64,000 nt of DNA from Thermoleophilaceae bacterium (GTDB taxonomy: Bacteria > Actinomycetota > Thermoleophilia > Solirubrobacterales > Thermoleophilaceae): positions 596-64,595 of the forward strand of contig JBBECV010000008.1 of assembly GCA_040881635.1 (NCBI GenBank). The letters run 5' to 3'. The translations under genes and the position numbers were made by a program. The notes below the pieces were generated by a model. The model saw nothing but the letters and a program-made list of their open reading frames with translations. It did not search any database and was not told the DNA's origin. Below, piece by piece: positions 1-8,311 of this stretch. The number at the start of each line of letters is the position of its first letter. The first letter of the stretch is position 1.

Positions 1-51
1 CGGAGGCTGTGCCTTGCGCCGAGAGCGGCGCCGTGATCTATTTCCCCGAGC

Positions 52-675
52 ATGCCATTCAGTCCGTACGACGCGGCCGCCGATGCACTGAAGCGTGCGG
101 ACGAGCTTCTCGACGCCTCCACGCGGAACGGCATACCGGAGCGGGTGGCCTCGGACATCCGCCGCTCGAGCCTCGTGCTTGCAGTCGCCGCGGTTGATAC
201 CTACATGCACCGCCTGATCGTGGATCGCGCTTCCATGTGGGACAAGCTGCCCAAGAAGCTCGCTGAGACCGGGGTGCGCTTCGATCAGCTGATCGCCGAG
301 GCGCAGGAGTCCTATGAGGCTGCCCGCCGCACGCCCTTCAACTCTCGGCCCGGTGTTCGCGTCAAGCAGATTCTACGTAACCAGCTCCTGCAGAGGACTT
401 TCCAGTCGTTGCGACAAATCGAGGAGGCGCTGACCATGGCTGGCGCCGCCGGGAATTGGAAGCCGATCAGCGAGCAGCTTGGCATGACAAGAGCGCAAGT
501 CGATGCACGTCTCGGACTCATCGTGATGCGACGCAACCAAATCGTCCATGAGGGTGACTACGCCAGGCTTGATCGTCCCAGAGACGCACGTCGGAACGAG
601 CTGTCCGAGTCGGACGCCCGAGCAAGCGTTCAGTTCCTCCGCGATCTTGCTGGCGCAATCCACGCAGTCGTGTGA
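52..675 (+). CDS. HEPN-superfamily protein (putative RNase), first gene of accessory operon
   Basis: 207-aa ORF with a C-terminal Rx4H motif, R161-NQIV-H166 (MRRNQIVHEGD, nt 532-549). This is the HEPN RNase signature seen in RiboL-PSP/Abi-like families. The next gene follows 55 nt downstream on the same strand. Confidence 0.6.
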   Translation: MPFSPYDAAADALKRADELLDASTRNGIPERVASDIRRSSLVLAVAAVDTYMHRLIVDRASMWDKLPKKLAETGVRFDQLIAEAQESYEAARRTPFNSRPGVRVKQILRNQLLQRTFQSLRQIEEALTMAGAAGNWKPISEQLGMTRAQVDARLGLIVMRRNQIVHEGDYARLDRPRDARRNELSESDARASVQFLRDLAGAIHAVV

Positions 676-729
676 CCGCGTCACCGTCCTACGCCTCACA
701 TTACCCCGGCGAGATAACGTCTCCCGCGC

Positions 730-2778
730 GTGCGATTCACAACACCTGCCCCTGACGGCAAACTCTTCCGACGCGTCCTAGCCCTCGCAAGAACCGCGCG
801 GGACACCGTCGGGTTCTTGCCCGACTCGGCCTTCAGAGATCGAGCCTTCGGAGGGACGCTTCTCGCCTGCGTGGCGGAAGACGATGGCCAAGAGCTTCTG
901 GGGTACGCGCTCTACGACCTTCCCCGGGACGAGATACGCCTCGGGCAGCTCGTAGTGGCTAGCCGCGCCCGGGACGGAGGGGTAGCACGCGCACTGGTAG
1001 ACGAGATCGAAGCGAGACACTCCCCTCGTCGAGGGATCTTCCTCTATTGCCGCAACGATTTCCCCGCTACCGAGATGTGGCCTCGAATTGGATTCGTAGC
1101 CCGTGACGAGCGTGCCGGCCGAAGCTTCGAGGGACACCCACTGACGCTCTGGTGGCGCGACTTCGGGCACGCAAACCTCTTCACATCTCAAGCCGAGGTG
1201 GATGCGCGTCCCGTGGCAGTGCTCGATGCGTGCGTCTTCTTCGATCTCGTCGGCAGCAACCCGAACCGGGCCTTGCAGGAGCTTAGGTCCGACTGGATTA
1301 CAGAGCATGCGCAGCTCGGAGTTACGGCCCATCTGTATGAGGAGATTCGCCGGGGCGCGGACTCGGTTCGGCGGAGACAGGAGCGAACAGCAGCTAGAGC
1401 CCTCGAGCTCCCGGGGATAGCAGGTTCCTCCTGGCGGGCCGTCCTCGCACAATTGAAGGCAATGCATCCAGGTGCTGCCGAGAAGGACAGGGACGACCTC
1501 ACGCATCTCGCATACGCGATCGCCCATCAGGCGACCTGGATGGTCACGTCGGATCGCTCATTCCGCGGTCGGTACGCCAACGCCGCCCTCGACATGGCAT
1601 CCGTCAAGCTCGTCTCCCCGGCAGAGGTGGTCCGAGAGATCGACGAGGTAGCACGTGGCGACGCATACAGCCCGAGAGACCTAGCCGGCACGGACATGAG
1701 CCGCCGAGAGGTGGATGCCGGCACTCTGGCTGGACTTGCCGAGCGATTCGTCAATCACCAGCGAGGCGAGAGGATTCGCGACCTGCGGTCGCGAATCGAT
1801 GCGGCCGCCGCGCAGGCCAGCCATGTCCGCCTCCAATTGGTGGAGGTTGACTCACAGCCGCGGGGCCTGCTCGGGTTCGAGCATAGCCGCGGGACCACAT
1901 TTGTGCGCTTCGTCCGGGTTTCTAGAGGCGTGGGAGACACCACAGTTGCTCGCCACTTGCTAGCGATGATCCGTAATGAGGCGGCGACGTCTGGTAGCTC
2001 ACGCATCGTGGTTCAAGACACGGCCGTTCCGACAGCCATCTCCCGAAGCTACGCCGACGAGGGATTCTTTGCCGAACGAGGACAGCCTGTTGAGGCATAC
2101 CCAATCACTGGCATCGGCACCCTCAACGATCTCGATCGCCGCCTCGCGACGATCGGCGCCCAAACAGCCACGGAGCGGCTGGGTGATCCCGCCACCGGAG
2201 CAAAGGTCGGTGCGGAGGCGGAGATCGCATATGCACCGTTTCGAATCCTTGGCATGGATTTTCCGACCTTTGTCGTACCGATCAAGCCCGCATGGGCGAC
2301 GGCACTCTTCGACTCACGACTCGCTGAGGAGCAGCTCTTCCATCGAGAGTGGACACTCGGTCTGAGGCGCGAGCTTGTGTACTACCGTAGCCCGCACGCC
2401 AGCGGAGGCATCCGGGCGCCCGCCCGGATTCTCTGGTACGTCTCTGGGGTCGACTCTCCCGGCGGCGCGGAGGTCCGAGCGGTATCCCAGCTTCGCGACG
2501 TCTTGGTTGCGCCGGCTGAGCACCTCTACAGGAGGTTCGAGCGTCTAGGTACCTATACCCTCGATCAAGTCGTCAGCCGGGCGGACTCGAAGGGGCGCGC
2601 AATGGCCCTACGCTTCTCCCATACCCATGAGTTTCGACGGCCTGTTCGGCTGGACGAGCTGCGAAGGATTCTTACCGGCGATCCGAAATCTCGAAGCGTG
2701 GTCCTCCAATCCCCTAGACTCATAGACGAACATACGTTCGCCACAATCATGGGTCTAGGGTTCCCAGATGACGTCTAG
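730..2778 (+). CDS. Multidomain GNAT - PIN - GNAT - ASCH/PUA-like fusion protein
   Basis: 682-aa ORF with a GTG start at 730 (start uncertain). Domains by eye: aa 15-145 GNAT (acetyl-CoA loop ASRARDGGVARALV). aa 160-285 PIN (VLDACVFFD ... DDLTHLAYAIAHQATWMVTSDRSF, VapC-like acidic residues). aa 365-455 second GNAT (VSRGVGDTTVARHLL). aa 510-680 beta-barrel-like module (FVVPIKPAWATALFD...) parallel to the downstream ASCH protein. Confidence 0.6.
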   Translation: MRFTTPAPDGKLFRRVLALARTARDTVGFLPDSAFRDRAFGGTLLACVAEDDGQELLGYALYDLPRDEIRLGQLVVASRARDGGVARALVDEIEARHSPRRGIFLYCRNDFPATEMWPRIGFVARDERAGRSFEGHPLTLWWRDFGHANLFTSQAEVDARPVAVLDACVFFDLVGSNPNRALQELRSDWITEHAQLGVTAHLYEEIRRGADSVRRRQERTAARALELPGIAGSSWRAVLAQLKAMHPGAAEKDRDDLTHLAYAIAHQATWMVTSDRSFRGRYANAALDMASVKLVSPAEVVREIDEVARGDAYSPRDLAGTDMSRREVDAGTLAGLAERFVNHQRGERIRDLRSRIDAAAAQASHVRLQLVEVDSQPRGLLGFEHSRGTTFVRFVRVSRGVGDTTVARHLLAMIRNEAATSGSSRIVVQDTAVPTAISRSYADEGFFAERGQPVEAYPITGIGTLNDLDRRLATIGAQTATERLGDPATGAKVGAEAEIAYAPFRILGMDFPTFVVPIKPAWATALFDSRLAEEQLFHREWTLGLRRELVYYRSPHASGGIRAPARILWYVSGVDSPGGAEVRAVSQLRDVLVAPAEHLYRRFERLGTYTLDQVVSRADSKGRAMALRFSHTHEFRRPVRLDELRRILTGDPKSRSVVLQSPRLIDEHTFATIMGLGFPDDV

Positions 2779-3229
2779 GGCAAGCGCGACGGTGCTACTG
2801 AGCGTGAAGCCACGCTTCGCGACGCTGCTTCTCGACGGCACGAAGACAGTGGAGATCCGGCGAGGTCGCGTCCGCCTTGAGGACGGCGCGACGTGCTTGC
2901 TGTACTCGAGTTCGCCCGAACGGGCGCTAGTCGGGACCGTCGAGGTCGGGACGACCGAGACCGGGCATCCTTCGGATATATGGGACCGCTGGGGAAGCCG
3001 TACAGGCCTGAGACGCGATGAGTTTGATGACTATCTACGCGACTGCGCCATGGCGACGGCCATCGTGATCCGTGAGGTCCAGCAACTCGAATCCCCGATT
3101 CCGCTCGACGTACTTCGAAACCGTCGAGAGGGGTTCGTGACCCCACAGAGCTATCGCTTCGTGGCAGACGAGGAGCGTCGTCTGCTGCTTGCCCAAGCCG
3201 GCGATAGCCACCCGTCGTATTCACTGTGA
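2768..3229 (+). CDS. ASCH domain protein
   Basis: 153 aa. The N-terminus VLLSVKPRFATLLLDGTKTVEIRRG matches the ASCH hallmark (IKP.yA..I..G.KtvE.RR). The ATG overlaps the end of the upstream gene by 11 nt, which suggests translational coupling. Confidence 0.7.
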   Translation: MTSRASATVLLSVKPRFATLLLDGTKTVEIRRGRVRLEDGATCLLYSSSPERALVGTVEVGTTETGHPSDIWDRWGSRTGLRRDEFDDYLRDCAMATAIVIREVQQLESPIPLDVLRNRREGFVTPQSYRFVADEERRLLLAQAGDSHPSYSL

Positions 3230-3273
3230 CCTAAGGCAGATTCAGCTCCACCCTTGTCGGCCTCGGAACCGCT

Positions 3274-3465
3274 CTAGCGCGGGTTCGCGGGCGGCGGGAT
3301 AGATAGCTGCCGGCAGACCTCGCGGCTGAGCCCTGGGCCGATTTCCTTGTGGCGCGGCACAGCCGACACCGCGCCGCTAGGGCCTCGCCATTTCGCGTGT
3401 TTCGATCCGCCTACCTCGCGGCAGCCATGAGTGCGCAGGTGGCGCTCGAGGTCGCGGCGCTTCAC
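3274..3465 (-). CDS. hicA: HicA-family mRNA interferase toxin
   Basis: 63 aa. MKRRDLERHLRTHGCREVGGSKHAKW...VPRHKEIGPGL fits the HicA/YcfA pattern. It has a 4-nt ATGA overlap with the upstream hicB. Confidence 0.85.
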   Translation of the reverse strand: MKRRDLERHLRTHGCREVGGSKHAKWRGPSGAVSAVPRHKEIGPGLSREVCRQLSIPPPANPR

Positions 3466-3692
3466 GCTGCGGCGGTGAAGCGCAGGTGCTCGCGGTCGGC
3501 CTTCGGCGCCTCGCCGGCGAGCTCCTCGTCCGGCGTCAGGACGGTGCTGAGAGCGTCCAGGACGTTCTCGCGCGCTTCTTCCCGAGTGCGGCCCTGGCTC
3601 ATCGCCCCCGGAACCTCAAGGACCCGAGCGACGATCCATCCCGCCTCGTCGGGCGGATCGAAGGCGATGGTGAAGTCGACTGAGGCAGCCAT
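3462..3692 (-). CDS. hicB: HicB-family antitoxin
   Basis: An internal ATG at 3692 within the 3462-4202 ORF gives a 76-aa product. FDPPDEAGWIVARVLEVPGAMSQGRTREEARENVLDAL is the HicB/UPF0150 signature. The upstream part of the long ORF is Arg-rich shadow. Confidence 0.8.
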   Translation of the reverse strand: MAASVDFTIAFDPPDEAGWIVARVLEVPGAMSQGRTREEARENVLDALSTVLTPDEELAGEAPKADREHLRFTAAA

Positions 3693-4040
3693 GAGGCGAA
3701 CGGTACCGGGTGCGAGCGGGGGCGTCCAGAAGGCAGCTGCAAGGCGGCTGGGGTCGTGCTCGCAACCTTGGTGCAAGTGTGTGGTCCGCTGGGCGGCAGC
3801 GAGGCGAGCAGCCATCGCGGGGCGAAGAGGGCGGGGCCCGGAGCGTCGCCGGGTCCAGGCGCGTTGACCGCACGAATCTGGGGGATCTGCGTCTACGGAG
3901 GAGATGGAGTCGTTCGAGCTGAGAGCAGGCAGTCGCAAGGTGATCGCAGGGGCGGGCGACTCGTCGGGCGCCGTCCCGAGTTTCCCTCCGCGTGGCGCGC
4001 GCCGGATCGGCGCCCGGCGAGCAAGCGTCGAGGTGCGGTC

Positions 4041-4268
4041 ATGACCGAGGACGACGATCCGGCCGACCCGGACGTCGAGCATCCGTTGTCGGAGCCGTTG
4101 CTTGATCCGGCGGGGGCTGCGGCGTTGTTGTCGGTGCGGCGGAGTTGGGTGTATGAGGCGGTGCGTGACGGCCGACTTCCGCATGTGAAGGTCGGCCGCC
4201 ACGTCCGGTTTCTGCGTGAGGATCTGGAGCGCTGGGTGTTCGCCCAGCGGAAGGGCCGGCTGTTCTAG
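4041..4268 (+). CDS. xis: Excisionase-family helix-turn-helix DNA-binding protein
   Basis: 75 aa from the ATG at 4041. LLSVRRSWVYEAVRDGRLPHVKVGRHVRFLREDLERWV is the excisionase/MerR-like HTH pattern, and the gene sits next to the integrase. Confidence 0.75.
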   Translation: MTEDDDPADPDVEHPLSEPLLDPAGAAALLSVRRSWVYEAVRDGRLPHVKVGRHVRFLREDLERWVFAQRKGRLF

Positions 4269-4597
4269 GCCATGGCCAGCTCGCTCGCCCTCGCCGCCGC
4301 GCGAGAGGCGAAGACGAAGCTGTCGATGCGGTGGACCAGGCCGGCGGCGGTGAGGCGGTTGAGGCCGTCGGTCGCGGCTATGGGGTCGCGCATCTCTCTG
4401 GCGATCTCCTCGACGGCCCAGATGCGATCCGCCAGCTGCGCACCAAACGCGGCATCAGCCAGGAGGACTTGGCCCCACGCTGCGGGAGTCACAACCGGCA
4501 CCCTGTCGGTGATCGAGCGTGGCAAGTCGAATCCGGCCTGGGGCACGGTCAAGGGGATCGCCAAGGCGCTCGACGTTCCCGTCGCCGACCTCGCCAA
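4265..4597 (-). CDS. Hypothetical small protein with winged-helix-like C-terminus (only the last ~60 codons look protein-like)
   Basis: The C-terminus ...IWAVEEIAREMRDPIAATDGLNRLTAAGLVHRIDSFVFASRAAA resembles a wHTH recognition region. The N-terminal half is antisense to the XRE remnant, so the real start is unclear. Confidence 0.25.
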   Translation of the reverse strand: MARSATGTSSALAIPLTVPQAGFDLPRSITDRVPVVTPAAWGQVLLADAAFGAQLADRIWAVEEIAREMRDPIAATDGLNRLTAAGLVHRIDSFVFASRAAARASELAMA

Positions 4598-4622
4598 GCT
4601 CGAGGCCAGCCTCGACCGCTGA
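4403..4622 (+). pseudogene. XRE-family HTH regulator, frameshifted
   Basis: The HTH signature is split across two frames. IRQLRTKRGISQEDLA lies in the frame of ORF 4331. AAGVTTGTLSVIERGKSNPAWGTVKGIAKALDVPVADL lies in the frame of ORF 4272. The frames rejoin if one C is removed from the CCCC run at about 4473-4476. Confidence 0.6.
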
Positions 4623-4642
4623 GCCAGCGACCCGACCGCGCG

Positions 4643-5773
4643 CTACGCCTCGAACGCTTGGGCGACCAGGGCGGCGTCGTCCTTGCGCGGCGCGTAGTGC
4701 AGGTAGCGCATCGTGGTCTTGATGTCGGCGTGGCCCATCCACTCCTGCACGCGGCGGATGTCGGCCACGCCGATCACACGCGTGCCGAAGGTGTGGCGCA
4801 GGTCGTGGAAGCGCAGACGCCGCAGACCGGCGCGATCGAGCGCGTCCTGGTAGCGGCGCCGCAGCGCCCTGCCGTCGAGGAAGCCGCCTGAGCGGCCGGG
4901 GAAAACGAGATCGTCGTCGCCCGTCCAACGTCCCCTGTCGCGCAGCCTCGTGAGCGCTGAGGCCACGTCAGGGGACAGCGGGACAGAACGGACCTTGCCC
5001 GACTTCGGCGTCGTCAGACCGCTCTCTGAGTACGAGGCCCGCACGCGGACCGTGTCGGCGTCGAAATCGACGTCGCGCCAGCGCAGCGCGATCAGCTCGC
5101 CGCGACGCAGACCGGTGTAGGCGGCGGTCAGGTAGATCGCGGCGTCCTGCTCGGAGGCCGCCGCGTCGACCAGCGCCGCGATCTCGTCCGGCGAGAACAC
5201 CTGGATGTCGCCGCTCGGCGTCGGCGCCGGCGGCTTCTCCACGTCGGCCACTGGATTGAACGGCAGGCCGTAGACCTTCCGCGCCCGCCTCATGATCCCG
5301 TTGAGCGCGACGAACGCCTTGGTCCGCGTGGCGGGCGCGCCGTCGAGGCCGGCGAGCCACGACTCGACCATCGGCGCCGTGATCGACTCGACGGCCATGT
5401 CGCCGAAGACCGTCAGCATCCGCGCCTTGATCAGCGCGCGGTAGACGGCGACCGTCGCGGGCTTGCGGCCGCGGTCGTGCTCCTGGTAGCGCAGCCACTC
5501 GTCGGCCGCCGCGGCGAACGTGATCCCGGTCCTCACGACACCCGGGTGCTGGCCGCGCTTGATCTCCTGCAGGAGCCCGTCGAGCGCGTCCTGCGCGGTC
5601 GTCTTCGTGAAGTAGCCCTCGGCGGGGCGGCCGCGTCGCGTCCACGCCGGCCCGAGCTTCTTCTGCACCTGGCGACCGTCCGGGAGCCGGTACTTCATGT
5701 ACCAGACCGGGCCGCGCTGGCGCTCGACTCTGAAGACGTGGCCGCTGACCGGCCGAGCGAGTTGGGTGCGCAC
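4643..5773 (-). CDS. int: Tyrosine-type site-specific integrase
   Basis: 376 aa. The catalytic region is HDLRHTFGT...WMGHADIKTTMRYLHY. GTG start preceded by a GGGAGG RBS. Adjacent to the tRNA 3-prime end. Confidence 0.95.
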   Translation of the reverse strand: MRTQLARPVSGHVFRVERQRGPVWYMKYRLPDGRQVQKKLGPAWTRRGRPAEGYFTKTTAQDALDGLLQEIKRGQHPGVVRTGITFAAAADEWLRYQEHDRGRKPATVAVYRALIKARMLTVFGDMAVESITAPMVESWLAGLDGAPATRTKAFVALNGIMRRARKVYGLPFNPVADVEKPPAPTPSGDIQVFSPDEIAALVDAAASEQDAAIYLTAAYTGLRRGELIALRWRDVDFDADTVRVRASYSESGLTTPKSGKVRSVPLSPDVASALTRLRDRGRWTGDDDLVFPGRSGGFLDGRALRRRYQDALDRAGLRRLRFHDLRHTFGTRVIGVADIRRVQEWMGHADIKTTMRYLHYAPRKDDAALVAQAFEA

Positions 5774-5903
5774 CGGAGCCTCCCGAGCTACTTGGCTTTC
5801 CAGAGCCGAAAGCTAGCAGCGCTTCGGGACATATTCGGGACACGCTTCTGCGGCCCGCTCCCCCGCCCTCCGCGAAAACCACCCATTTGCAGGCGATTTC
5901 TGA

Positions 5904-5976
<73 letters not shown>

Positions 5977-6039
5977 GCGTTGGGTGGAGCGTAGCGCGAG
6001 ATTGGCTGGGCCGGGAGGACAGCGGGGCGCCGGGTGCCG

Positions 6040-6519
6040 TCAGGTCGAAGGAGGCTGCTCGCCGTCGTAGTAGTCGACGGCGTCGTCGAGGCGGAACCAC
6101 TTGCGAACGCCGCCGCCCGTGGGCAGGCGCTCGGCGGCGCCGAGCTTGTTGGAGTCGGGGTAGACGACGAGGTCGGGGTCGCCGTTGGTGCTGATCGCCA
6201 GGAAGCGGACGGCCGTGTCGCCGCGATTGACGAGCTGGTGGGCGCCGTCCTCGCCGCGGCGGAACGAGACGACGTCGCCCTCGTCCAGATCGCGCCAGCC
6301 GTCGGGCGTGCGCAGCGCTGGGCTCCCCTTCAGCACCACCAGCAGCTCCTCCTCGCCGAGGTGGAAGTGGTACGGGTAGGCCGCTTGACCGGGTGGGAGC
6401 TCCCAGAGGCTGGCGCCGAGCCGCTCGGTCTTCAGCTGGTAGCCGATGCGCGCGCGTTGCGCCCGGAATCCGTCCTGCTCGCGCGCCTCGTCGAACTGGG
6501 GATCGTTGAGGTTCGGCAT
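6040..6519 (-). CDS. Cupin domain protein
   Basis: 159 aa. LPPGQAAYPYHFHLGEEELLVVLKG...GDVVSFRRGEDGAHQLVN is a typical two-motif cupin signature. Confidence 0.8.
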   Translation of the reverse strand: MPNLNDPQFDEAREQDGFRAQRARIGYQLKTERLGASLWELPPGQAAYPYHFHLGEEELLVVLKGSPALRTPDGWRDLDEGDVVSFRRGEDGAHQLVNRGDTAVRFLAISTNGDPDLVVYPDSNKLGAAERLPTGGGVRKWFRLDDAVDYYDGEQPPST

Positions 6520-6533
6520 AGCGCGTCCGAGCC

Positions 6534-7076
6534 CTATGGGGGAGGAGGGATTCGAACCCGCTCAGGCGTAGCCACCGAATTTACAGTCCGGCCCGGCTCT
6601 CCAACTCCGGCGCTCCCCCGTGGAGCGGATGCCGATTCTAGAGGCTCAGATGAGCGACGCGGAGTCTGCGGGATCGGCCGGCCGCGCTCGACCTCGAAGC
6701 TCGCGTACTTCGGCCCGCCGAGGCGGAGCCCGGTTGCGCCATCAACTCGGTCGGCCGGAATGCACCAGCGCCGCCCATCGCCGACGTGGACGAAGAGGTA
6801 GTCGCAGCGAGTCGGGGAGAACCGCTTCGAGATCCCGTTCCAGCTCTGGTTGCCCCCACGCGTACAGATGGAGACCGCCCACCGATGCTTCTCAACGCAC
6901 CTCGTCGTCTTGACCTGAACGCGGAAGATGCGGTCGCCGAGCTCTACGGCCAAGTCCCAGTCCGGGCTATGGCCCAAGGGAAGCGCCACCTTGCCCCCCA
7001 TCGAGGCGAACAACTCGAGAGCCGACAGCTCGCCGAAATCCCCTTGCTCTTGCCTCGTCATGGGACGAACATACAT
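6534..7076 (-). CDS. PD-(D/E)XK endonuclease-like protein; ORF runs through tRNA-Tyr
   Basis: QGDFGELSALELFASMGGKVALPLGHSPDWDLAVELGDRIFRVQVKTT...CDYLFVHVGDGRRWCIP fits the group-I-intron-associated PD-(D/E)XK family layout. The recognisable domain ends near aa 132. The last ~45 codons are simply the tRNA translated. Confidence 0.55.
   Translation of the reverse strand: MYVRPMTRQEQGDFGELSALELFASMGGKVALPLGHSPDWDLAVELGDRIFRVQVKTTRCVEKHRWAVSICTRGGNQSWNGISKRFSPTRCDYLFVHVGDGRRWCIPADRVDGATGLRLGGPKYASFEVERGRPIPQTPRRSSEPLESASAPRGSAGVGEPGRTVNSVATPERVRIPPPP
6537..6619 (-). tRNA. tRNA-Tyr (anticodon GTA), long variable arm
   Basis: Minus-strand read. Acceptor GGGGGAG/CTCCCCC, anticodon loop C-T-GTA-A-A, long variable arm, T-loop TTCGAAT. 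There is one C-U mismatch in the T-stem. Confidence 0.85.

Positions 7077-7159: not shown

Positions 7160-8311
<1,152 letters not shown>

Follow-up and report, generated by a model that had tools for sequence, protein, structure and literature searches.

Within a 64,000-nucleotide stretch of a Thermoleophilaceae bacterium genome (GenBank assembly GCA_040881635.1, contig JBBECV010000008.1, positions 596 to 64,595 of the forward strand; the whole stretch is referred to as the window), we analysed a gene (A) for a 682-amino-acid (aa) protein in which two GNAT acetyltransferase modules, a PIN nuclease domain and a C-terminal ASCH-like domain are joined, followed by an overlapping gene (B) for a small ASCH protein. 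Comparison of homologues, predicted structures and genomic neighbourhoods revealed that A is a real and widespread four-domain protein, predicted to be an enzyme, and that B accompanies it strictly. Judged from sequence and structure prediction, the chances are somewhat better than even that A and B form a two-gene conflict module, acting in anti-phage defence or in a toxin-antitoxin-like manner, on a small element at a tRNA-Thr gene. The pair appears to be distantly related to PDC-M11, a candidate system of PADLOC, and B is in addition a homologue of ZmASCH, an ASCH protein of Zymomonas mobilis. The features of the two genes are as follows.

730..2778, plus strand: gene A, 682-aa GNAT-PIN-GNAT-ASCH-like protein; uninterrupted open reading frame (ORF) with a GTG start
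730..1179, plus strand: GNAT-1, aa 1-150 (Pfam Acetyltransf_1/7/10)
1207..1629, plus strand: PIN nuclease domain, aa 160-300 (Pfam PIN_3 E 2e-9, PIN E 1.9e-5)
1681..2139, plus strand: GNAT-2, aa 318-470, with degenerate acetyl-CoA loop (AlphaFold, Foldseek, weak NCBIfam ArsN2 match)
2236..2775, plus strand: C-terminal ASCH-like (PUA-like) domain, aa 503-682, without the Lys/Glu dyad (hhalign, Foldseek, PADLOC)
2768..3229, plus strand: gene B, 153-aa ASCH protein of PDC-M11B type, ZmASCH homologue (PADLOC PDC-M11B E 2.2e-30)

Gene A encodes a widespread four-domain protein

The product of gene A is identical to a protein listed at NCBI as 'GNAT family N-acetyltransferase' from a Thermoleophilaceae metagenome-assembled genome, and 84 further homologues, retained after clustering at 90%, share 29-67% identity with it, are nearly all 660-710 aa long and have the same domain order. 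A search with the family profile against 1.84 billion cluster representatives, each standing for a cluster at 50% identity, returned 4151 proteins at E ≤ 1e-3, of which 1446 reached E ≤ 1e-30; each of the 150 top matches had E ≤ 1e-150, and nearly all of them were full length, with a few of 430-615 aa. Shorter forms exist that lack GNAT-1, or GNAT-1 together with most of the PIN domain, some of which are contig-end truncations. In a GTDB scan with one genome per species, 65 A loci were found, distributed over Actinomycetota (Solirubrobacterales, Acidimicrobiia, Streptomyces and others), Chloroflexota, Latescibacterota, Planctomycetota, Verrucomicrobiota, Bacteroidota (Prevotella), Acidobacteriota, Gemmatimonadota, Alpha-, Gamma- and Desulfo-proteobacteria, and Spirochaetia. 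No copy of A was detected in 50,697 phage records, and the viral structure library BFVD yielded single-domain matches only.

A first-pass annotation of the window had described A as a four-domain polypeptide, while naming a fusion of separate genes by sequencing error as one of the observations that would overturn this description. Hundreds of independent assemblies contain full-length homologues in which the domains follow each other in the same order, which rules out a sequencing or assembly fusion, and all four domain assignments hold by Pfam, AlphaFold, Foldseek and hhalign. The AlphaFold model that the same annotation had asked for, computed with 79 homologues as input, is confident (mean pLDDT, predicted local distance difference test, 89.7; pTM, predicted TM-score, 0.73) and did not overturn the PIN and ASCH-like calls. 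A sequence search of the PDB with the whole of A, or with its C-terminal domain, gave nothing useful.

Nuclease and acetyltransferase sites

Site conservation in A was assessed on 148 representatives, one per cluster at 50% identity, aligned to the family profile. In GNAT-1, Pfam recognised about aa 34-127 (Acetyltransf_1 E 3e-8, above the gathering score, plus Acetyltransf_7/10), and the motif ASRARDGGVARALV corresponds to the canonical R/Q-x-x-G-x-G/A acetyl-CoA loop (R81, G84, A86). This pyrophosphate-binding loop is kept throughout the family, with R/Q81 in 141, G84 in 136 and A/G86 in 138 of the 148 representatives, and is accompanied by the near-invariant, family-specific residues Y59, C107, R108, D110 and W117. 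The best Foldseek matches of GNAT-1 were N-acetyltransferases of the Ard1, NatA and RimI types.

Comparable conservation was found in the PIN domain, where PIN_3 spans about aa 163-279, likewise above the gathering score. The acidic tetrad is kept as D166 (146 representatives), E/D205 (143), D256 (143, the rest being gaps) and D275 (147), so that the four conserved acidic residues expected of a VapC-like PIN domain are present in more than 96% of the representatives. Three of the acids assigned by the first-pass annotation (D166, D256, D275) are indeed conserved, whereas D255, also named there, is Ser in 93/148; the fourth conserved acidic residue is E205, which had been overlooked.

For GNAT-2, the assignment came from structure prediction. 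Over aa 323-464 the AlphaFold model follows the GNAT order b1-a1-a2-b2-b3-b4-a3-b5-a4-b6-b7; Pfam matched nothing in aa 300-682 when pieces were scanned alone at E ≤ 10, and NCBIfam gave only a weak ArsN2 match (aa 370-427, E 1.5e-5). A sub-model of aa 300-682 alone, without GNAT-1 (pLDDT 84), was compared with the PDB by Foldseek and matched, after ZmASCH, a series of GNAT acetyltransferases (E 3.5e-5 and weaker; TM-score normalised to the target, TMt, 0.5-0.65). As the sub-model excludes GNAT-1, these matches confirm GNAT-2. Its loop positions are mostly L402, T405 and A407 instead of R/Q, G and G/A; R396 is kept in 147/148 representatives, and D430 and F446 are strongly conserved. The role of acetylation writer initially envisaged for the GNAT modules is therefore matched by a canonical loop in GNAT-1 but not in GNAT-2, and A may possess a single active writer. 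Because a T-x-[LI]-G-x-R-like loop variant is common to GNAT-2 and to the GNAT of canonical GNAT-EVE proteins (discussed below), GNAT-2 is probably the ancestral GNAT of the lineage, its catalytic competence being uncertain. A recent duplication of GNAT-1 as its origin found no support (hhalign E 0.053, probability 1%).

A putative reader in A and a candidate hydrolase in B

Following GNAT-2, the AlphaFold model of A ends in a beta-barrel-rich domain. Alignment of the C-terminal 190 residues with the B family by hhalign covered 134 columns (probability 92.5%, E 5e-7) and paired exactly those three motif blocks whose order, according to the first-pass annotation, parallels that of the downstream ASCH protein. 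The top eight PDB matches of the aa 300-682 sub-model were all ZmASCH (E 2e-7, TMt 0.77-0.82), and the N-terminal PUA-like reader domain of an archaeal McrB (Staphylothermus marinus, 6N0S) was matched as well (E 4e-5). Pfam EVE did not match this domain even at E ≤ 10; it is not specifically an EVE domain and is closest, by structure and profile, to ASCH (ZmASCH and B). A PUA-like fold serving as a reader fused to effectors is known from McrB and from PUA-Cal-HAD; the likeness of A to these proteins is structural only, and its effectors are PIN and GNAT rather than GTPase/nuclease or phosphoesterase.

Within this domain, P503, W569 and S586 are present in all 148 representatives, E498 (147), Y551 (145), R566 (144) and Y570 (144) are near-invariant, and T632 and F670 are also invariant or near-invariant. 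The conserved aromatic set comprises W569, Y570, Y551, F629 and F670. ASCH proteins hydrolyse N4-acetylcytidine (ac4C) in nucleosides and tRNA by means of a Lys/Glu dyad (bioRxiv 10.64898/2026.02.27.708502; PMC6972931). TthASCH and EOLA1 use this pair to deacetylate ac4C in tRNA, and it is essential in TthASCH; activity on tRNA in vitro is stated for all the proteins tested (bioRxiv 10.64898/2026.02.27.708502). Where hhalign places the dyad, A carries A/S532 and G/A544 and never K or E in any representative. Because the essential pair is absent, binding or reading is a likelier function of the ASCH-like domain of A than erasing, and the eraser half of the reader/eraser role suggested by the first-pass annotation is not favoured for A itself.

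B presents the complementary picture. While the Pfam ASCH match is marginal (E 4e-4), ZmASCH (PDB 5GUQ, 5GUS) is a full-length homologue of B and, as noted, the best structural match of the C-terminal domain of A; 5GUS was related to B with E 2e-15 by phmmer and with E 1e-28 over the full length by the B-family profile. The ac4C amidohydrolases and erasers YqfB, TthASCH and EOLA1 share the ASCH fold, with sequence similarity to B that is marginal (E 0.006-2). Across 69 loci, the G-x-K-x-x-E-x-R signature of B is intact (K26 in 68/69, E29 in 68/69, R31 in 69/69; the range over these three and G24 is 65-69 of 69), Y46, W72 and Y89 are invariant and a P-Q-S motif is almost so. B thus agrees with the ASCH amidohydrolase signature G-x-K-x-x-[E/T]-x-R, including the Lys/Glu pair essential in TthASCH, whereas the C-terminal domain of A does not. 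Since B keeps the dyad that A has lost, B is the candidate hydrolase of the pair.

ZmASCH, the only relative of B with both a structure and biochemical data, is a Mg-dependent single-stranded RNA nuclease in vitro (PMC5615036). Three of its residues, Y47, K53 and S128, have been implicated in binding and cutting RNA and are retained in B as Y46, R52 and S128. The same protein showed no activity on free ac4C and failed to reduce ac4C in tRNA in vivo (bioRxiv 10.64898/2026.02.27.708502), and a deacetylase role of B is uncertain because ZmASCH is its closest characterised relative.

These observations bear on an acetylation-based form of immunity with writer, reader and eraser, a refinement of the idea in the first-pass annotation, in which GNAT-1 would acetylate an exocyclic amine on a base (for instance cytidine N4 in RNA, or an amine-bearing hypermodified base of phage DNA), the ASCH-like domain of A would read the mark and license cleavage by the PIN domain, and B would clear the mark from self. 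The canonical GNAT-1 and the dyad-less ASCH-like domain in A, the intact dyad in B and the known ac4C chemistry of that dyad would fit such a circuit, as would the association of A and B with restriction-modification (RM) and McrBC genes, which handle modified DNA. Base acetylation has also been proposed by Iyer et al. for GNAT-EVE systems, as cited in PMC7641849. However, base acetylation is not known from any GNAT of this lineage, and the known ac4C writers, the RNA cytidine acetyltransferases TmcA and NAT10, need a helicase module, whereas A contains no helicase or ATPase by Pfam, NCBIfam and AlphaFold. Moreover, the nearest structures to GNAT-1 are protein N-terminal acetyltransferases, and ZmASCH, as the nearest tested relative of B, did not hydrolyse free ac4C. 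We rate this circuit as unlikely, and slightly less credence still is given to the idea that A and B represent the first writer/reader/eraser circuit for base acetylation in prokaryotic immunity.

Linkage of A and B

In the window, B starts at an ATG inside the end of A, with an 11-nucleotide (nt) overlap read directly from the sequence. Linkage was examined at 70 loci on 69 distinct contigs, where the distance from the end of A to the start of a B homologue was ~30 nt or less in 67/70 and at most 83 nt in one more, such that B lies directly downstream in 68/70. In one of the two exceptions A is truncated and B lies at a distance of 1.8 kb; the other is a fragment. The arrangement is conserved in Actinomycetota, Chloroflexota, Bacteroidota, Planctomycetota, Verrucomicrobiota, Latescibacterota, Acidobacteriota, Proteobacteria and further groups. 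B-like genes also occur without A, whereas A almost never occurs without B. ZmASCH itself (locus L071, Zymomonas mobilis, 6001-6447) scores as PDC-M11B (PADLOC E 3e-29), yet is a solo gene; the gene upstream of it encodes an unrelated 375-aa protein with a signal-peptide-like N-terminus, and ZmASCH was discarded as the B of a similar Zymomonas pair. The in vitro RNase activity of ZmASCH was, in other words, measured on an 'orphan' partner, since ZmASCH stands alone.

A pair of this kind could also be a classical toxin-antitoxin (TA) system that stabilises its element, with A as a double toxin, its GNAT acting on aminoacyl-tRNA like TacT/AtaT and its PIN on tRNA or rRNA like VapC, and with B as the antitoxin. 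Both GNAT and PIN domains are frequent among toxins (PMC7641849), and A shares with TacT, AtaT, ItaT, KacT and VapC the catalytic folds, the PIN tetrad and the arrangement as mobile paired genes. The near-absence of A without B while B also occurs alone, the 11-nt overlap, the presence of the module on plasmids and integrated elements, and the annotation of B homologues on rhizobial plasmids as helix-turn-helix (HTH)-containing proteins would all be compatible with such an assignment. The architecture, on the other hand, differs markedly: type II toxins of the GNAT and VapC families are single-domain proteins of about 130-180 aa with a ribbon-helix-helix (RHH)/DUF1778 or VapB antitoxin gene upstream, whereas A is four to five times larger, contains four domains including a putative reader that these toxins lack, has its PIN domain in an internal position, and is paired with an ASCH protein downstream, the gene upstream being an unconserved HEPN gene. 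The family-defining antitoxins are absent, as Pfam found no match to DUF1778, RHH or VapB among the genes flanking A, and it detected no HTH domain in the B of the window. The recurrent linkage to RM and McrBC genes, presented below, fits defence better than simple addiction. We regard a classical TA system as an improbable identity for the pair, on a level with the acetylation circuit.

Relation to the candidate system PDC-M11

GNAT-EVE proteins and PIN-GNAT-EVE fusions were described computationally by Bell et al. in 2020, following Iyer et al. in 2013 (PMC7641849). According to this paper, the (PIN)-GNAT-EVE operons nearly always include an ASCH protein and often an ATPase, PIN-GNAT-EVE genes are linked to RM and defence genes and GNAT-EVE genes to prophages, and the operons were predicted to act in TA or defence, none of the modules being characterised. 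The PADLOC candidate PDC-M11 is this set of (PIN)-GNAT-EVE + ASCH operons. Canonical GNAT-EVE + ASCH pairs, which we located by searching with ZmASCH, in a Rahnella prophage region and on a Rhizobium plasmid score as PDC-M11A with 1e-128 to 1e-132 and as PDC-M11B with 1e-49.

The A of the window matches PDC-M11A by its C-terminal domain only (PADLOC E 1.3e-10). Its relatives also match via the PIN domain, at matching N-terminal positions of the 486-aa model PDLC04421, and because the PIN and C-terminal matches (E 1e-10 to 1e-14) fall at corresponding model positions, the domain order is the same in the A family and in PDLC04421. Like PDC-M11, A and B comprise a small ASCH protein preceded by a large one, in which PIN and GNAT domains are followed by a PUA-like domain at the C-terminus, and they are associated with RM and defence genes, in a census without background statistic. 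Unlike PDC-M11, A carries a further GNAT at the N-terminus whose acetyl-CoA loop is canonical, its C-terminal domain is nearer to ASCH (ZmASCH) than to EVE, the neighbouring RM genes are mostly of type IIG/ISP rather than type I, and an AAA_17-type ATPase is absent from the window. A conserved downstream ATPase, of the kind seen on the cyanobacterial plasmids and by Bell et al., was rejected as a component of the module, as jackhmmer searches with the Calothrix and Nostoc ATPases found none in the 70 loci or in the window.

From these sequence comparisons we treat A and B as a distant, enlarged relative of PDC-M11, with the same partner, the same PIN-GNAT-PUA core and the extra N-terminal GNAT. 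The latter is a new feature, in that the passages of the published family descriptions consulted do not mention it. The statement in the first-pass annotation that no characterised protein has this architecture is true; the architecture as such is not without precedent, being distantly related to PDC-M11, with an extension at the N-terminus, and belonging to a very large family. Public labels are inconsistent in this group: a B-type ASCH protein (L075, Nostoc plasmid, 2598-3074) is listed as 'EVE domain-containing', and GNAT-EVE proteins (e.g. L077, Rhizobium plasmid, 2965-4020) appear as 'EVE domain-containing', 'N-acetyltransferase' or 'GNAT family'.

Genomic neighbourhoods

To describe the neighbourhoods, no more than two ORFs per side, each 200 aa or longer, were collected from about 62 loci and assigned by Pfam (169 ORFs, with crude ORF calling). 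The commonest families were N6_Mtase (10), Eco57I (8), AAA_15 (7), Helicase_C (6), HNH_5 (5), SMC_N/AAA_23 (5) and AAA_21 (3), and further recurrent families included ResIII, Type_ISP_C, MmeI_Mtase, insertion sequence (IS) transposition genes, HipA, Schlafen-AlbA, Nmad2 and GASH. Neighbours at other loci encode a relaxase, an AbiEii-type ATPase, a Zeta toxin, resolvases, a DO-GTPase/GASH, a TIR protein and integrases, and A copies are also plasmid-borne. By inspection, and without a background model, this is a defence-island and mobile-element pattern.

A type ISP/IIG enzyme is encoded directly upstream of A on the same strand at five loci (L016, L018, L019, L020, L073); there the ISP/IIG gene ends at or overlaps the start of A, and the three genes may constitute an operon. 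On the Calothrix sp. PCC 6303 plasmid pCAL6303.01 (L074, 4790-12494), genes for a cytosine methyltransferase, Eco29kI, A, B, McrB (AAA_5) and McrC follow each other on one strand, an order which hints at cooperation of A and B with modification-dependent restriction. That the pair acts as a reader of modified invader nucleic acid working together with RM or McrBC is a narrower proposal, which we place below the generic conflict-module reading.

The frequent RM neighbours are also relevant to a sensor of alarm nucleotides, in which the ASCH-like domain of A, or B, would bind a modified mononucleotide set free by phage degradation of the methylated host chromosome and would thereby trigger abortive infection through PIN and GNAT. 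PUA-like domains that bind methylome-derived N6-methyl-dAMP (m6-dAMP) and activate fused effectors are described in two recent reports (10.64898/2026.01.15.699771; 10.1101/2025.11.05.686725), A and B often adjoin RM genes of the N6-adenine methyltransferase type, and the conserved aromatic set in the C-terminal domain of A would suit a nucleotide-binding site of this kind. Conversely, no sequence relation to the m6-dAMP-sensing PUA family was seen, although no search was aimed at one, the element in the window carries no methyltransferase, and the conserved second ASCH protein and the acetyltransferase modules would be left without explanation. A sensor of this type appears quite improbable.

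Least credible among the alternatives is a housekeeping pair for RNA modification or turnover, for example one that maintains the acetylation of tRNA or rRNA, without any part in genetic conflict. Domains of the ASCH, PUA and GNAT types occur widely in RNA metabolism connected with translation (PMC7641849), and a few loci lie among core genes. Such a role is difficult to reconcile with the patchy occurrence across more than ten phyla in varying neighbourhoods, with flanks rich in RM, defence and IS genes, with plasmid-borne copies, and with the lower local GC content and the adjacent integrase and tRNA genes at the locus studied here.

Proposed mode of action

A generic conflict module, which we consider slightly favoured overall, is ranked above the specific mechanisms discussed so far, all of which received lower probabilities. 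In its simplest form, the C-terminal ASCH-like domain of A would act as a non-catalytic reader and bind a nucleic acid or nucleotide with a particular base or modification; this step is based on the ASCH/PUA fold, the conserved aromatic and polar residues and the absence of the hydrolase dyad. The PIN domain, whose acidic tetrad is intact and strongly conserved, would serve as the nuclease effector, most likely cutting RNA. GNAT-1, on the basis of its conserved canonical cofactor loop, is predicted to move an acetyl group from acetyl-CoA to a target amine on a nucleobase, an aminoacyl-tRNA or a protein, while GNAT-2, with its divergent cofactor loop, may mainly be a scaffold or substrate-binding module. 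B may target this ligand too, either by hydrolysis (deacetylase or RNase) or in competition with A, thereby restraining or complementing A, a step based on the strict linkage of the two genes and their overlapping frames.

Several points weigh against a conflict module related to PDC-M11. Comparison of A with canonical GNAT-EVE proteins by hhalign was not significant (E 0.014, probability 3%), although the alignment ran in order over 283 columns from GNAT-2 to the last residues, and the PADLOC score of A is 1e-10 compared with 1e-128 for canonical PDC-M11A members. PDC-M11 itself is only a candidate system, and a literature search retrieved no experimental report on any member of the A-B family or of the PDC-M11 / (PIN)-GNAT-EVE systems. 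The ac4C results for ZmASCH make the deacetylase variant of the proposed step for B uncertain, and a 682-aa multidomain protein is atypical of classical type II toxins. The enrichment in defence islands was recognised by inspection, without a calculated background and with crude calls of flanking ORFs, and some loci lie among housekeeping genes (e.g. L005, which adjoins gatCAB).

The interest of the system lies in the size of the A family (1446 clusters at 50% identity with E ≤ 1e-30, in more than ten phyla), in which both the nuclease and the acetyltransferase sites are intact. With GNAT-1 as candidate writer, the ASCH-like domain as putative reader, B as candidate eraser and PIN as effector, the pair offers a concrete test case, and its mechanism would tell whether bacteria defend themselves by acetylating nucleic acids or amino acids bound to tRNA, besides assigning a biological role to proteins of the ZmASCH type.

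The element in the window

The remaining features around A and B are the following.

52..675, plus strand: HEPN (RiboL-PSP type) predicted RNase, 207 aa, 54 nt upstream of A (Pfam HEPN_RiboL-PSP E 7.6e-8)
3274..3465, minus strand: HicA toxin gene (Pfam E 2e-9)
4041-4268: HTH_17 excisionase-like gene
4272-4622: HTH_3 regulator
4643..5773, minus strand: tyrosine integrase (Pfam Phage_integrase E 9e-32)
5904-5976, minus strand: tRNA-Thr (ARAGORN)

Positions 1-5976 look like a small element integrated at tRNA-Thr that carries A and B. The GC content is 62-64% over 1-3250 and about 70% beyond, and a 6.1-kb contig of another sample (L079) spans the same set of genes from HEPN through A and B to the integrase. 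No second copy of the tRNA-Thr 3' end, as expected for the opposite attachment (att) site, was found in the window, and the far boundary of the element is therefore located at or before position 1. As no homologue of the HEPN gene was found beside A at the other 69 loci, it was rejected as a third component of the module and probably represents independent cargo of this island, serving defence or abortive infection.

A 104-aa ORF (3465-3776, minus strand) follows HicA on the same strand and could encode the HicB antitoxin; it has no Pfam match. Beyond the element, a tRNA-Tyr gene (6537-6619, minus strand) is overlapped on the same strand by a listed 180-aa ORF (6534-7076, minus strand). The translation of a further ORF (7160-8311, minus strand) reads, by eye only, like a primary sigma-70 factor (RpoD-like), which would mark core chromosome beyond the island.

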